A stretch of 64,000 bases of DNA. Origin: Escherichia coli (lineage in GTDB: Bacteria; Pseudomonadota; Gammaproteobacteria; Enterobacterales; Enterobacteriaceae). Shown piece after piece: positions 33,001 through 48,000 of this stretch. Numbering within the stretch: the first letter of the stretch is position 1; the number at the start of each line of letters is the position of its first letter. The position numbers are program-made. The stretch lies in NCBI RefSeq assembly GCF_011045215.1, contig NZ_CP049202.1; one strand, 5' to 3'.

Positions 33001-36000
33001 TAACTTGTATGACAAGGGGTACAGCAGTAGTAACATCCATTGATTTTATGCTCTGGCCAGCGGCTTTTTGCACTCAATACTGCACCATGACAGGATGAGT
33101 GATGGCCCAGAGGAATTTGGTTCTCTGACGCTGGCATGTAAGAGCAGCCATTGGTCGCATCATGTACTTCATGATCACCATTTAATTGTGGATTCTTGTT
33201 AATTATATAATTAGGCATTTACATATCCATTGTTAGCAATTGCAAATTAGACTGCTTATTTTCCTTTTAAAATAAATGGTTATCAAGCGTGTTGGATTAA
33301 TTTCCAGGTTACGCCTTTTCCATTGTATGGAGGCATTATATTGCCTTTAGCAATCGGTGCTGTAGTTGAAGGGGTTCCGACCACTTTCCAAATCCCACTT
33401 TCAGGGCATTTTTGTCCGGTAGATGCAGTTGTTCCAATTGGTACTTTAGACATCCTGATTCCTCTTTTGTGTTTTATCCGTATTGTTTTTGTGTAGCAAT
33501 ACAAATGTCTATATTTAGGAATCTGTTTTCAAGAGAACGTTGAGGACATTTTTTACGGCAGTGATCGCTATCACACTTTTACTTAAAATTGGGACGACAA
33601 ACGATAGGCATACTGAGAAACTGAAATTTTTGTACGCATCGCTCGTTCAGCGATGGAGTCTCCCTGCGCTGCAATAACGCAATTGTACAATATTGTACGG
33701 TTGCCAAACGTGGCTCAGATACAATGTGCCGTCAGCCAGTCTTATGGTTATATGTTTGTAGTCTATCTTATAATCAGTTTTTGATGGTGTTCAGTGACGG
33801 AACCATCTGGAGCAGAATCCCCGTTTTTCAGAACGATTCAGTATTGTTCATGATAGCCAGAAAATGGTTTTCGAAACATAGATGAATCCAGAAGTTAGCT
33901 AAGCAGGTTCACTCGATGGTACAACCTGGAACACAAGCACACCTGTATTGCAGGCTTACAACCGCCAAGATATTGACACCACTTTTGTTGCTTGTGCAGT
34001 ATTGTTTTTCATGCTCTCCACCTGGTCCAGAATATCTTGAGGCCCGCCAAGACAACGGAACCGATGGTCACTTCTGTTTTCCTGGCGGTGTTAGCAGAGA
34101 CAAATCAATAGACTGCGTGAATATCGATGGTTGCACCACATGCCTGAGCATATCTTGTCAAAGTTTTCATACTGGCTCCTAAAGGATTACTTTCCAGCCG
34201 GCTGATGGCTGACGGGCGTACCCCCATTCGTTCGGCCAGCGCTGACTTTGTTAACCCCGCTTTTTCTCTCATTTCGTACAACATTTCTACCATCTCCAGT
34301 TCTTTATCGGCATCTTCATAGCCTTTGACAGCTTCCGGAGTATTAAGCAGTTTTTGCTTTACCTGGCTGAACGGAACACCTTTTACTTTCATCATTTCAT
34401 CTCCTTCAGGCGCATCCTGGCGATTTCAATAGCTTTTGTTGGTGTCTTTTGCGTCTTTTTCACAAATGCATGCAGCAGATAGATTTCATTACCCGTTGCA
34501 TAAGCGTACAGTGTCCTTGCGACATTTTTATCCCCGACTCTCAGTTCAAAAAGTCCTCCACCAATTACACGGCTGTGAGGCATTTTCATTTTATTGCCTT
34601 CCTGTTCCAGCCGTTCAATCAATCTGGCCATGCGACCACGTAGATTATCTGGTAATTCAATCAACTCATTCAGTGCGGCCGGGTGAGTAATCACATTAAA
34701 CATATTATAGCCTCCGAAAGGATAAAATACATCAGAACAGGAAAATTGCACAAATATAAAATTTCACTGATAAGTGAAACACATGTTAAGTACAGTTTTG
34801 ATGCCGCGTCAGCGGCATGGAAGGCGGCACTCCGTTGTAGCATATGGCGCAGGAGTAAAACCGCCGAAGCCCGGCGTAAGCCGATACTGATTGATAGATT
34901 TCACCTTACCCATCCCCGGCCCTTGTATGTAATAGGACTCGATGGCTAGCTACCATCATATGAAGCAGAGTGAGCTTGTCCCAGCCCTGAACAGTCAGAC
35001 TTTGATTAGCAGCAAAAGCCCTCTGCTGTAAGCGTCAACGGAGCACCGTATTGACGCTTATTTATTGGTGAGAACCACGTTCCATGGCAGGAGTTCGTCA
35101 ACACGGTTGGAGGGCCATTCCGGCAGTACGCTCAGAATATGGCGCAGATACGCTTCCGGATCGATACCGTTCAGACGGCAGGTGCCGATCAGCCCGTATA
35201 GCAGTGCACCACGCTCGCCGCCGTGATCGCTACCGAAGAACACGTAATTTTTCTTTCCAAGACAGACTGCACGAAGCGCTCTTTCCGCTGTGTTATTGTC
35301 CGTCTCCGCCAGTCCGTCATCACTGTAATAACAGAGGGCGTCCCACTGATTCAGTACATAGCTGAACGCTTCGCCCAGTCTGGATTTTTTCGACAGCGTG
35401 CCATTCTTCTCCACCATCCATTCATGCAGCGACGTCAGTAACGCTTTGCTTCGCTGCTGTCTGACTGCAAGACGCTCTGACTCTGGTAATCCCCGTATCT
35501 CATCCTCGATGGCGTACAGTTCACTGATTCGCTTCAGGGCTTCTTCTGCCGTCGCACTTTTGCTGCTGATGTATACATCGTGGATTTTTCTCCGGGCATG
35601 GGCCCAGCACGCAACTTCTGTCAGCGCACCACCTTCACGTTCTGCACTGAACAGCCTGTCATAACCTGTGAACGCATCCGCCTGCAGGATACCCCGGAAG
35701 GGGCGGAGGTGTTGCTCCGGGTGTTTCCCCTGCCGGTTCGGTGAGTACGCGAACCAGACCGCCGGAGGAGATGACGAACCCGCATTGCGATCATCCCGGA
35801 CATACGTCCAGATGCGCCCTGTTTTCGTCTTTTTCAGGCCCGGTGCCAGTACCTTTACCGGTGTGTCGTCAGTGTGAAGCTTGCGGGTATTCATCACATA
35901 ACGGTACAGGGCATCATTCAGCGGTGTCATTAACTGGCAGCACGCGTCAACCCAGTTGGAGAGTAATGCACGGCTCAGTTCGACACCCTGTCGGGCAAAG

Positions 36001-45000: not shown

Positions 45001-48000
45001 GATATTCATTATATTTCATTGAGTTATTGCGTTGCTCTGAACATCTTCGGGTTCTTCCTGGTATACCCATTTTGCCAGGTCATGCCCTTTCACCTGTTGC
45101 CAGTCAACCCCACAGACCAGCCAGTGAAACTCATCCTGTGTGAGATGCCATGTGGCATCACCTTTCCGGGGCCAGCGGAAGCTTCCCCGGTGCAGTCGTC
45201 GGGTACACAGCCATACGCCATGTTTGTCCCACCGGAGAACTTTTATGCGGGAGCGGACTTTATTGGTGAAGACAAAAGCAGCACCGTCATGCCATGCAGC
45301 GTTAAGTTCGTTCTGGACGTACTGTGTCAGTGTGTCGATACCCCGGCGCATATCGACGGGTTTTACGACCAGGAATACGTTATCAGGCGTCAGCATGGCG
45401 AAGAGCCCGGAAAACATCGGTTAACTGAGAAGGCTGGCAGCACATCCGGATACCTCCGGGAAGGAAAAGTGTGACAGGCTCATCCGACAATGGTCTGCCA
45501 TCAGCCATACCGGGAGCGCCAGACACTGAAACTGGAATAATTTCAGGTGCTCTGGCTCGTTTTTCGGCTTTTGCAACATCCTGCGGCCACTGGCGCAGGG
45601 ATTTAAACGGAATGTCGTAAAGTTCACAGTACTGTTCACGGGTAAGGCCGCTTGCGCGCCATGCGGCAACGTGATGTTTTTTCTGATCAAGCGTCCATCG
45701 CATCCTGGGCATTGTTTACTCTCCACAGAAAGAAGTTATACGAATACCGGAATGCTAATGGCGTGAAAATTTCTGTGAAGATGAGGTCCCCGGAACATTA
45801 CCTTCTTCCTGCCATGCAGTGCTATATTCAGCATCCTGCACTCCATTCGGAGTGCAGTTCTTTATGACATACTAGTTTCGCTGAGTACCTCAAATAGCCA
45901 TTGTAATAAGCGCCTCACAACATTAGCTTACAAGCTAATTACAGGTAAGTTAAATTAATTCAGATAATCGCAGGTACACAGGACACTTCATTTAGGGCCC
46001 TGTGGGAATTTCTGCGACAGTACACAGTAACAAAATCTGGTTCATGGGATTGTACGCCGAAATTTCAGAAAATACCGTCACAAAAGCTGGTAACCAGTAA
46101 ATTTGCATGACGTTGAATATATAACGGGTTATGTGACGAGTTTCGGTGTCGAAATCGTTACTTCAGTGACGGTCACTCAATCGGTCGTTTACAACTCCGT
46201 AAAAACTGGTCACGGAAAAATCCAGGTTTCCGGCCAGGAAACCCCAACATAATGGGATTCACATTATTGTTTATAATCCGAACCGCCCCAATAAGTTACG
46301 TCTGATTCATTTTCCCTGAAAACACGCCTCATTTCCGGAGGCGTGTTTTACCCGACAGATTCCAGATTTGTATCACATTGCTGCACGATAAATTGCAACT
46401 ATCTCTTCATGTGTCGCCTGTATCGGGTTCGTCAGCCCACAGGCATCTTTCAGCGCATTTCTGGCCAGTTCCGGTATATCTTCATCTTTCACATTCAGGT
46501 CGCGTAGCCCTGCCGGAATATTAACTTTCTTCGCCAATTCACGGATGGCATTAATACAGACTTCAGCACCTTCCTCGTCATTTTTACCCGTCACGTTCTC
46601 CCCCATTGCAGCAGCGCAGTCACGCAAACGTGCAGCTGCAACTTTACTGTTAAATGCCTGAACATACGGCAGCAGAACGGCATTACATACACCGTGCGGC
46701 AGATTGTAGAAACCACCCAGTTGATGCGCCATCGCATGAACATAACCCAGAGATGCGTTATTGAACGCCATTCCTGCGAGAAACTGAGCATAAGCCATCG
46801 CCTCACGCGCTTTTTCATTGTTGCCATCCTCAACGACCAATGGCAAATATTCCGCAATCATGGTCACGGCTTTCAGTGCACAAGCGTCGGTGATCGGTGT
46901 GGCAGCAGTAGATACATACGCTTCAATAGCATGAGTTAAGGCATCCATACCGGTAGCCGCAGTCAACGGCTTCGGCATACCGAGCATTAACGAGGGGTCA
47001 TTGACAGAAAGCAGCGGAGTCACATGTTTATCCACTATCGCCATTTTGATGTGACGCACTTCGTCAGTGATGATGCAGAAACGAGTCATTTCTGACGCCG
47101 TACCCGCCGTAGTATTGATGGCGATCATCGGCAACTGCGGTTTTGCAGAACGGTCAACACCTTCGTAATCACGAATATCGCCCCCATTGGTGGCTACCAG
47201 CGCAATACCTTTTGCACAGTCATGCGGAGAACCACCACCTAATGAAATAACACTATCACAATTATATTCTTTCAGTAGTTTCAGACCTGCAGCAACATTT
47301 TCTGTGGTTGGATTAGGCTGGACGCCATCATAAATAACGCTAAAAACACTGTGTTCTTCCAGTGCTTTTTGCACATTCCCCGCCATACCTGACTTCGTTA
47401 ACCAGCGATCAGTAACAATCAGGCTTCGACGGAAACCATACCCCGCCATCATTCTGGTTGCTGTCGATAACGATCCCACCCCCAGCATATTTACAGAAGG
47501 GATAAAAAATGTTGACACACTCATTGAGTTACTCCGAATTTCTGTATACATATTTCAAGCCAGAATAAACCGTAATGTCATGTGTTACGGGTATGACTCA
47601 TCATTTATAGCGATAAATACAAGAATGTCTATTCTGTAGGTTCCACCTTCCCCTGATTTGCAAGCGTCGATTTTTGTGATGTTCATCAGGGGAAAGAGCC
47701 TATGGAAAAACGGCAATACCGCGACTTTTCTGGGGAGTGATCTTTTACTTACATGTTCTGTCCGGTTTATCCCCCGATTCTGTGGATAACCAGTCTGCTG
47801 TTATGTGAGAACCGCCACCGCTCGCCGTAGCCCCAGCGACCAAACGTAGTGAGCGAGTGAGCGAGGAAGCGGAATGTCTACCCCCCCTGAATTGAGTACT
47901 TACGCGCCGGGCTTCCTTCCGCTCATGACCTGATACGCCCTGTCAGACTTGTCTGCTACCAGAGACGCTTACGTGTCAGCACCAGTGATATAAGACGTAA

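Follow-up and report, generated by a model that had tools for sequence, protein, structure and literature searches.

How did five insertion sequences (ISs) come to lie inside and against one another on a single plasmid segment? The segment that raises this question occupies positions 35028-45801 of a 64,000-nucleotide stretch of Escherichia coli DNA (contig NZ_CP049202.1 of assembly GCF_011045215.1), which is referred to here as the window and whose numbering is used throughout. The window is a mosaic, IS-rich plasmid of E. coli type and virulence type, which harbors a trimeric autotransporter, a pef-like fimbrial operon, yiaY and many IS fragments. At the heart of the cluster is an older IS66-family element, termed C, whose tnpC gene is interrupted both by ISCro1, a second IS66-family element (copy B), and by an IS1111-type member of the IS110 family that is itself split by IS21. 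A third IS66-family element, copy A, abuts what remains of C. The arrangement is very probably a pile-up of five ISs of known type on this plasmid, and one of the insertions, that of the IS1111-type element, appears to have been directed to its site by guides within the noncoding region of the element itself. The initial annotation had described the cluster as two complete IS66 copies and an IS110 element inside a third IS66, with IS21 inside the IS110 element, and had taken it for a transposition hotspot.

The elements of the cluster and the reconstruction of tnpC

Gene content was established from a listing of open reading frames (ORFs) combined with NCBIfam scans, and apart from those in IS fragments the matches lie above the curated cut-offs. 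Comparison loci are designated by the prefix L. An uninterrupted copy of C is found beside yiaY on plasmid B of E. coli C5 (L001:9331-12101). This copy is 2771 bp long, has inverted repeats (IRs) GTAATATTCCGG.../GTAATGTTCCGG... and is bordered by an 8-bp duplication, CTTCTTCC. In the window the terminal IR of C ends at 45801 and is followed by CTTCTTCC and then by the same flanking DNA as in L001, so the two are orthologous copies. The surviving fragments of C (Table 1) are collinear with L001 and overlap on this reference by 8 bp at ISCro1 and by 1-2 nt at the IS1111-type element, bearing out the proposal that an older IS66-family element received nested insertions. Three pieces of tnpC do survive, as had been proposed, but a fourth, the end of C, is gone: the last 772 bp of the element, comprising 413 nt of tnpC and the left end, are missing from the window.

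The three IS66-family elements are different members of the family and not copies of one IS. All three have the tnpA-tnpB-tnpC layout with a TnpC profile match, the TnpA models match all three, and their IRs all start with GTAA. Two complete gene sets are present on the minus strand (35058-37447 and 38210-40825), with TnpC proteins that score 446.8 bits (A) and 475.9 bits (B) against NF033517 (cutoff 180), and TnpB model NF033819 matches both A and B; the TnpC fragments of C match NF033517 at profile positions 4-70 and 75-274. TnpC of A shares 54% identity with that of B, and the TnpC pieces of C are 30-35% identical to those of A or B (tblastn). At the nucleotide level the three elements are 52-59% identical in global comparisons. 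An 8-bp duplication is found for B (TCTCACAG) and for the reference copy of C (CTTCTTCC), not for A. The description of two complete IS66 copies inside a third was therefore overstated, as the three are distinct members and one of them stands at a truncation or rearrangement boundary.

ISCro1, first named in Citrobacter rodentium, lies between exact 8-bp repeats of TCTCACAG, the second of which occupies 40879-40886, and the uninterrupted L001 copy has a single octamer at this point (10742-10749). The boundaries originally given for copy B are exact. The copy is 99.8% identical over its 2699 bp to an element annotated in RefSeq as 'IS66-like element ISCro1 family', and its gene layout and 8-bp duplication are both as known for ISCro1; with no noteworthy difference, it is an ordinary copy.

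IS21, the prototype of its family, has a length of 2131 bp and generates a 4-bp duplication. The copy in the window has exactly this length, ends in TGTCAG...TGACA, encodes istA followed by istB, and is flanked by GTTT at 42501-42504 and 44636-44639. Uninterrupted copies of its host element contain a single GTTT (L004, L009), and L006 likewise defines the insertion, so that this part of the initial annotation survived re-inspection of the flanks unchanged. Close matches carry the PGAP name 'IS21-like element IS21 family', and nothing noteworthy sets the copy apart from the prototype. IS21 splits the transposase of the IS1111-type element after codon 11.

The inserted elements can be removed in silico. 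Excision of ISCro1 with one copy of its target-site duplication, and of 41246-44808 (3563 bp, comprising the IS1111-type element, IS21 and one core), leaves 1999 bp collinear with the reference. Here a single tnpC frame of 390 codons starts at the ATG at 44973, crosses both junctions and ends at copy A. The prediction that excision would restore tnpC accordingly holds across the IS1111-type and ISCro1 junctions, but a full gene is not recovered, and a single, window-specific TAG stands at codon 14. Removal of copy A recovers no further part of the gene, as the DNA on its left does not belong to C. ORFs called across the IS junctions, at 37498-38169, 41518-42558 and 40862-41332 (the last reading from the IS end into C), are chimeras and not genes.

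Table 1. Features of the IS cluster and alignments of its C-derived segments to the uninterrupted copy of element C (L001); nt, nucleotides; IR, inverted repeat; TSD, target-site duplication
Feature	Position	Strand	Content and evidence
Left flank of A, plasmid backbone	34924-35027		No similarity to C reference; rearrangement/deletion boundary
IS66-family element A, 2505 bp, apparently intact	35028-37532	-	NCBIfam TnpC 446.8 bits, TnpB, TnpA
Genes of A	tnpC 35058-36650, tnpB 36681-37031, tnpA 37028-37447	-	NCBIfam
C fragment 1, tnpC nt 525-1171	37533-38179	-	99.2% to L001:10103-10749; NCBIfam IS66 profile positions 75-274
ISCro1 TSD, left copy TCTCACAG	38172-38179		Single copy in L001
ISCro1 (copy B), IS66 family, intact, 2699 bp	38180-40878	-	NCBIfam; 99.8% to element annotated ISCro1 in L003
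Genes of ISCro1	tnpC 38210-39781, tnpB 39801-40148, tnpA 40148-40825	-	NCBIfam
C fragment 2, tnpC nt 166-532	40879-41245	-	98.1% to L001:10742-11107; includes right copy of ISCro1 TSD (40879-40886) and left copy of TC core (41244-41245)
IS1111-type element, 3' part	41246-42504	-	NCBIfam 'IS110 family RNA-guided transposase' NF033542, 318.5 bits, cutoff 140
Content of IS1111-type 3' part	3' non-coding 41246-41517; subterminal IR 41249-41261; codons 12-339 at 41518-42504	-	Non-coding part with predicted seekRNA/bridge RNA
Predicted donor-end-matching guide-RNA segments	41305-41354	-	Predicted
Predicted target-binding loop of guide RNA	41373-41406	-	Guides co-vary with targets in four related elements
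IS21, intact, 2131 bp	42505-44635	+	NCBIfam IstA NF033546 277.7 bits, IstB NF038214 302.9 bits, above cutoff
Genes of IS21	istA 42606-43778 (390 aa), istB 43775-44575 (266 aa)	+	
IS1111-type element, 5' part	44636-44806	-	Second GTTT, codons 1-11 (ATG 44672), 5' non-coding, subterminal IR 44789-44801
C fragment 3	44807-45801	-	99.8%, collinear with L001 through yiaY; right copy of TC core (44807-44808), tnpC nt 1-165 (ATG 44973, TAG at codon 14), tnpB 45016-45396 (tblastn with A and B proteins, about 45076-45405), tnpA 45383-45712 (NCBIfam IS66 TnpA)
Alignment to L001:10102-10749	37532-38179		99.2% identity
Alignment to L001:10742-11107	40879-41244		98.1% identity
Alignment to L001:11107-13000	44806-46700		99.8% identity

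An IS1111-type element and its match in tnpC

The element that separates C fragments 2 and 3 has an IS110-family transposase, of the DEDD type, as judged by its profile score with NF033542. It is 1428 bp long including one core copy and, once IS21 is removed, encodes a transposase of 339 aa with a 5' noncoding region (NCR) of 133 nt and a 3' NCR of 273 nt. The hallmarks of the IS1111 group are all present, in that a 13-bp subterminal IR, ATGAACGCATCCC, lies 3-5 nt from each end, a long NCR lies downstream of the transposase gene, and comparison with empty sites reveals no target duplication. Its 3' part is 99.8% identical to the uninterrupted copies in L004 and L009. Together with IS21 the body of the element extends from 41246 to 44806, and not from 41340 to 44810 as originally drawn, the left end having been placed about 95 bp away.

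A 2-nt core borders the body at 41244-41245 and 44807-44808 and reads TC on the plus strand, GA on the minus strand. For two relatives, inserted upstream of emrA and yhdW, empty sites are available in E. coli K-12 and read GGAG-AA-CAATATG and CACAGG-AA-GCATTATG, indicating that exchange takes place at a 2-nt core without duplication. When this rule is applied to the window, the pre-insertion sequence becomes CCTGGAA-GA-GCAGATG, which encodes LEEQM in frame. It is the sequence found in the intact C-type copies of L019, L021 and L023 (CCTGGAAGAGCAGATG), the allele that is also recovered at the junction on excision. Excisions of 3561 or 3562 bp were considered and rejected, since they produce a spurious frameshift, and both the K-12 empty sites and the intact C alleles give 3563 bp.

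The architecture of subterminal IRs, a downstream NCR and no added bases is that of the IS1111 seekRNA elements (Siddiquee et al. 2024, PMC11187229). The window element resembles the members of this group, such as ISEc11, ISKpn4 and ISPa11 (PMC11187229), as well as the elements with IS621-type bridge RNAs, in its 'IS110 family RNA-guided transposase', its 13-bp subterminal IRs, the long NCR downstream of the transposase gene, the lack of a target duplication, the presence of one guide per target strand and re-programming among relatives. It differs in its target, TGGGA-GA-GCAGAT as opposed to GTGAAAATACTG for ISEc11. Its nearest named relative is ISEc66, at 89% nucleotide identity; it carries no specific name in the annotation, and its RNA is predicted from sequence alone.

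Alignment of the 3' NCRs of the element and its relatives revealed conserved stems and two variable blocks, which are taken as the target guides. Guide 1, AUCUGCUCU (41398-41406), is the reverse complement of A+GA+GCAGAU, that is, of the core and right flank, and guide 2, UGGGAGAAU (41373-41381), equals the left flank and core plus AU, the first two bases of the IS. The two guides flank a small hairpin above a closing stem, GACUCGC/GCGAGUC (41416-41422 / 41361-41367), and in the consensus fold they fall on opposite sides of an internal loop, with one compensatory change in support. Two further segments would match the donor ends, with GGAUAUAGAGC (41305-41315) matching the right end and core and UUACAU (41349-41354) being complementary to the left end, ATGTAA. 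Among the relatives this donor block occurs as GGAUAUAGAGC or GGAUAUAAAGC, in step with a G/A difference at the end of the IS and in its core. The target guides vary likewise: the guide blocks of relatives (ACAGGAA/AUAAUUCUU, UGGAGAA/AUAUUGUGU and GCAGUAA/AUGGGGUUU) each fit their own target, and when four guide sets were scored against seven sites, cognate pairs reached 13-15 of 16 at six of the seven, compared with 4-10 for non-cognate pairs.

The site in tnpC, CTGGAA-GA-GCAGAT, has one mismatch to the programmed 13-mer, TGGGA-GA-GCAGAT, and no other site with up to two mismatches was found in the 64-kb window. The uniqueness of this match argues that the insertion was sequence-directed by the guides of the NCR, and it removes one of the three hits from any evidence for a regional hotspot. 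The locus may thus serve as a natural worked example of an RNA-guided IS1111-type element with a 13-nt match inside the gene of another transposon, and the guide-target pairs across its relatives are usable as test cases for target-prediction rules.

Elements more than 99% identical are found elsewhere, at the start of IS2 orfA (L004, L005, L007) and in a prophage of the C5 chromosome (L006), and relatives with 88-89% identity lie upstream of yhdW (annotated as ISEc66), upstream of emrA and at other locations. The same insertion into the same position of tnpC occurs on other chromosomes (L009, L010), where C is otherwise intact and IS21, A and B are absent. It was also considered whether the element aims at IS66 tnpC as such, an idea that was rejected on account of the insertions in IS2 orfA (L004, L005) and the prophage (L006), as these sites share a short sequence and not an IS66 context. 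In the C5 chromosome the right junction of the same IS (L006:~2933-2950) reads CATATA-AA-T-GCAGAT, one nucleotide over the canonical form and with AA in place of GA. Members of the group tend to be located between a Shine-Dalgarno-like GGAG or AGGA and an ATG, as at yhdW, emrA and IS2 orfA (L008, L012, L004, L013 and L014, with K-12 empty sites in L018 and L017), and their programmed targets resemble translation-initiation regions.

The boundary at copy A and the history of the cluster

Copy A is complete, as had been claimed, with 2505 bp, intact tnpA, tnpB and tnpC genes and terminal IRs (GTAAGCGTCAACGG.../GTAAGCGTAAACCG..., the ends beginning GTAAGCG), and it is 95% identical over its full length to a copy in L003. 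Its position inside C is another matter. Only its right end abuts C, at the equivalent of L001:10103 (tnpC nt 1171). The flanking octamers, CCTCTGCT and GTATTTTT, are unlike each other and there is no target duplication. To the left lies plasmid backbone, and the interval 34850-35027 matches many IncF/IncI-type plasmids at 98%, near a RelE/ParE-HTH module, with the matches ending exactly at 35027. Copy A without a duplication likely marks a point of recombination or fusion, and we attribute the missing 8 bp to later rearrangement. E. coli genomes that match 35028-40878 were considered as carriers of the same cluster and dismissed; in L003, ISCro1 and an A-type element are no more than neighbors, and the IS66 fragment that they surround is a different one.

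The blocks on either side of the cluster have different affinities. Identity to plasmid A of E. coli C5 exceeds 99.5% over 10906-24751 and 28456-32914, identity to C5 plasmid B is 99.8% over 44797-55126, and the cluster sits at the seam between the two types of block. This placement suggests plasmid fusion or exchange by way of IS copies. The hybrid flanks of A and the seam together would fit either recombination between copies of A or an adjacent deletion mediated by A.

The history of the cluster may be pictured as follows. Element C would have inserted beside yiaY. The guide RNA of the IS1111-type element, specifying TGGGA-GA-GCAGAT, would then have led to recombination into CTGGAA-GA-GCAGAT at about codon 56 of tnpC, through the 2-nt core and without duplication. 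Insertion of IS21 into codon 12 of the transposase, with a 4-bp duplication, would have killed this element. ISCro1 would have entered codons 175-178 of tnpC with its 8-bp duplication, and the right end of A would have come to abut tnpC nt 1171. Finally, a later event at A may have exchanged the DNA on its left, removing both the last 772 bp of C and the duplication of A, either as homologous recombination with another copy of A (by deletion, inversion or plasmid fusion) or as an A-mediated adjacent deletion. Parts of this order are fixed. C came first, ISCro1 and A both arrived after C, and the left end of C was lost after the arrival of A; IS21 came after the IS1111-type element, because it splits the transposase of the latter and because the uninterrupted insertion in C exists elsewhere. 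The partial order given in the initial annotation, with C first and IS21 after its host, agrees with this. Nesting alone gives no mutual order for the IS1111-type element, ISCro1 and A, and the sequence in which these three are listed above is to be read accordingly.

If A, B and the IS110-family element were simple insertions into one IS66, as first proposed, then excision would restore a whole tnpC and the region could be called a hotspot. B and the IS110-family element are indeed clean insertions, three independent elements abut one 2.8-kb IS, and IS66-family elements adjoin each other in other genomes as well, for example in L003 and L010. The part of this model that concerns A is already refuted by the comparison of its flanks, as A has no duplication, its left flank is not C and 772 bp of C are missing. 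The inverted remnant at 31908-32733 was examined as a candidate for the missing end of C and rejected, as it shares only 87-92% identity with C, covers 104 bp that are also present in C fragment 1 and recurs in an identical setting on C5 plasmid A. A 13-nt guide match without a second instance in the window accounts for the IS110-family hit, sites like TGGGAGAGCAGAT being preferred under the guide model, and ISs inside ISs occur elsewhere in the window too. The simple-insertion model is consequently most improbable, and the hotspot is unsupported. An assembly mis-join within the multi-copy repeat A, such that the left backbone and the right C fragment are not contiguous, would account for the absence of a duplication around A, for the switch of similarity from C5 plasmid A to C5 plasmid B across the cluster and for the fact that neither A junction combination occurs in any other record, and A-type elements are present in thousands of genomes. 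Hybrid flanks around an IS are, however, a common genuine product of IS-mediated recombination, and the rest of the cluster is consistent to the base, so that a mis-join is very unlikely.

A different difficulty concerns the recombination site itself. Unoccupied C copies in E. coli C5, on plasmid B (L001:~11107) and plasmid A (L022:~3160), read CCTGGAAGA-A-GCAGATG. The additional A falls exactly at the IS1111-type core (41244-41245 / 44807-44808 in the window) and causes a +1 frameshift in tnpC that is flagged by PGAP. Of these two, the plasmid B copy is orthologous to the occupied one in the window. In a search with 317 bp around the site, two of the best 40 rows, both C5 plasmid copies, span 317 bp and the other 38 span 316 bp; the other C-type copies inspected have the intact allele. 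It is therefore conceivable that the element entered a frameshifted allele through a 1-nt overlap instead of an intact allele through a 2-nt core. The window junctions formally fit the L001 allele given a single shared A/T, L001 is the orthologous copy, and the same IS in L006 has its right flank offset by one nucleotide. Against this, a 2-nt core is found in the two relatives with true empty sites, the guides read the core and right flank contiguously (GAGCAGAT), which the additional A would break, and only the two C5 plasmid copies among the best 40 rows are one nucleotide longer. We consider entry into the frameshifted allele quite unlikely and retain insertion into the intact allele. The additional A could possibly be a scar, left by imprecise loss or by an exchange that was aborted; it could also be a bulge that was tolerated, or a coincidence combined with gene conversion. 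The more general idea that an IS1111-type recombinase leaves single-nucleotide scars at its target core is unlikely, since published assays detected no target-site regeneration after excision of IS110/IS1111 elements. If true, it would mean that natural sequences record off-pathway outcomes of the bridge/seekRNA recombinases, enzymes that are under development as scarless genome editors.

Besides this frameshifted allele, several further points weigh against the account preferred here, the stepwise pile-up with a guided insertion. In single-sequence folding the minimum free energy of the guide-RNA region does not improve on that of shuffles (z = 0.32), the four sequences show no more than two compensatory base pairs, and an Rfam scan of the window gave no match to a bridge/seekRNA family. 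The predicted ancestral junction between the left part of C and A was found in 0 of 5,426 complete E. coli genomes, the actual backbone/A junction in none of these genomes or of the PLSDB plasmids, and neither a partner copy of A nor the reciprocal junction was found; the event at the left end of A is deduced solely from the missing duplication. Lastly, three hits in one 2.8-kb element exceed what is expected of uniform random insertion, and some regional or IS66-into-IS66 preference is possible. A plasmid pays no price for insertions into a dead IS, and the site need not attract transposases; build-up in dead elements is the prediction of neutral retention, with the dead IS acting as a neutral landing pad. 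The stepwise pile-up remains very much the favored account, and as the ordinary biology of known elements it leaves the current understanding of these families unchanged.

The surrounding plasmid

Nested IS clusters of this type, sometimes referred to as IS graveyards, are a feature of large enterobacterial virulence and resistance plasmids. The present cluster resembles them in the insertion of ISs into inactive ISs, in the hybrid flanks that result from IS-mediated recombination and in a mosaic backbone with segments common to other plasmids. Its exact combination of junctions is absent from the 5,426 complete E. coli genomes and from 72,556 plasmids. Mobile-element DNA makes up roughly 40% of the whole 64 kb, by a rough estimate, and outside the cluster includes fragments of Tn3, ISKra4, ISL3, IS21 and IS66 as well as a group II intron. 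Rfam matches to the ALIL pseudoknot, a frameshift signal of the IS3 family, and to a group II intron domain, at 14478-14594 and 20178-20264, lie in surrounding mobile-element debris.

The mosaic extends beyond the immediate flanks of the cluster, as blocks that are split between two C5 plasmids are joined here, 10906-32914 corresponding to plasmid A and 44797-55126 together with 57743-61805 to plasmid B. Within the former, C5 plasmid A is collinear with the window except that it lacks a 3.7-kb segment (24752-28455), and the two sides overlap by 6 bp where they meet. The ORFs of this segment are all small, none exceeding 172 aa, and obvious terminal repeats are absent; the sole ORF scanned, 24925-25443 (172 aa), gave no NCBIfam match. 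IS66-family relics are found on the same side of the cluster, namely the inverted 3' tnpC and end fragment at 31908-32733 (plus strand) and small pieces at 30237-30395 and 30444-30605 that are related to the A/B type. All three have an equal context on C5 plasmid A.

Other IS110-family elements are also present. At about 55126-57750 a second IS lies within an IS: a different IS110-family element (transposase at 56633-57697) has broken IS2 (orfB 55138-56043) near 56357, within the opening codons of orfA. The break is 13 bp from the IS2 site used by the IS1111-type element of the cluster in L004 and L005, and the left end of IS2 was not found beyond the IS110-family element there. A third IS110-family transposase, at 23669-24721 (346.5 bits), is surrounded by IS3-family transposase fragments (~23.1-24.75 kb), an arrangement that is the same on C5 plasmid A and is probably another insertion into an IS3-family element. 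Finally, an exact 13-nt copy of the subterminal repeat of the IS1111-type element (GGGATGCGTTCAT) stands alone at 53048-53060, within the fimbrial usher ORF 51231-53657, compared with a chance expectation of about 0.002 for such matches in the window.

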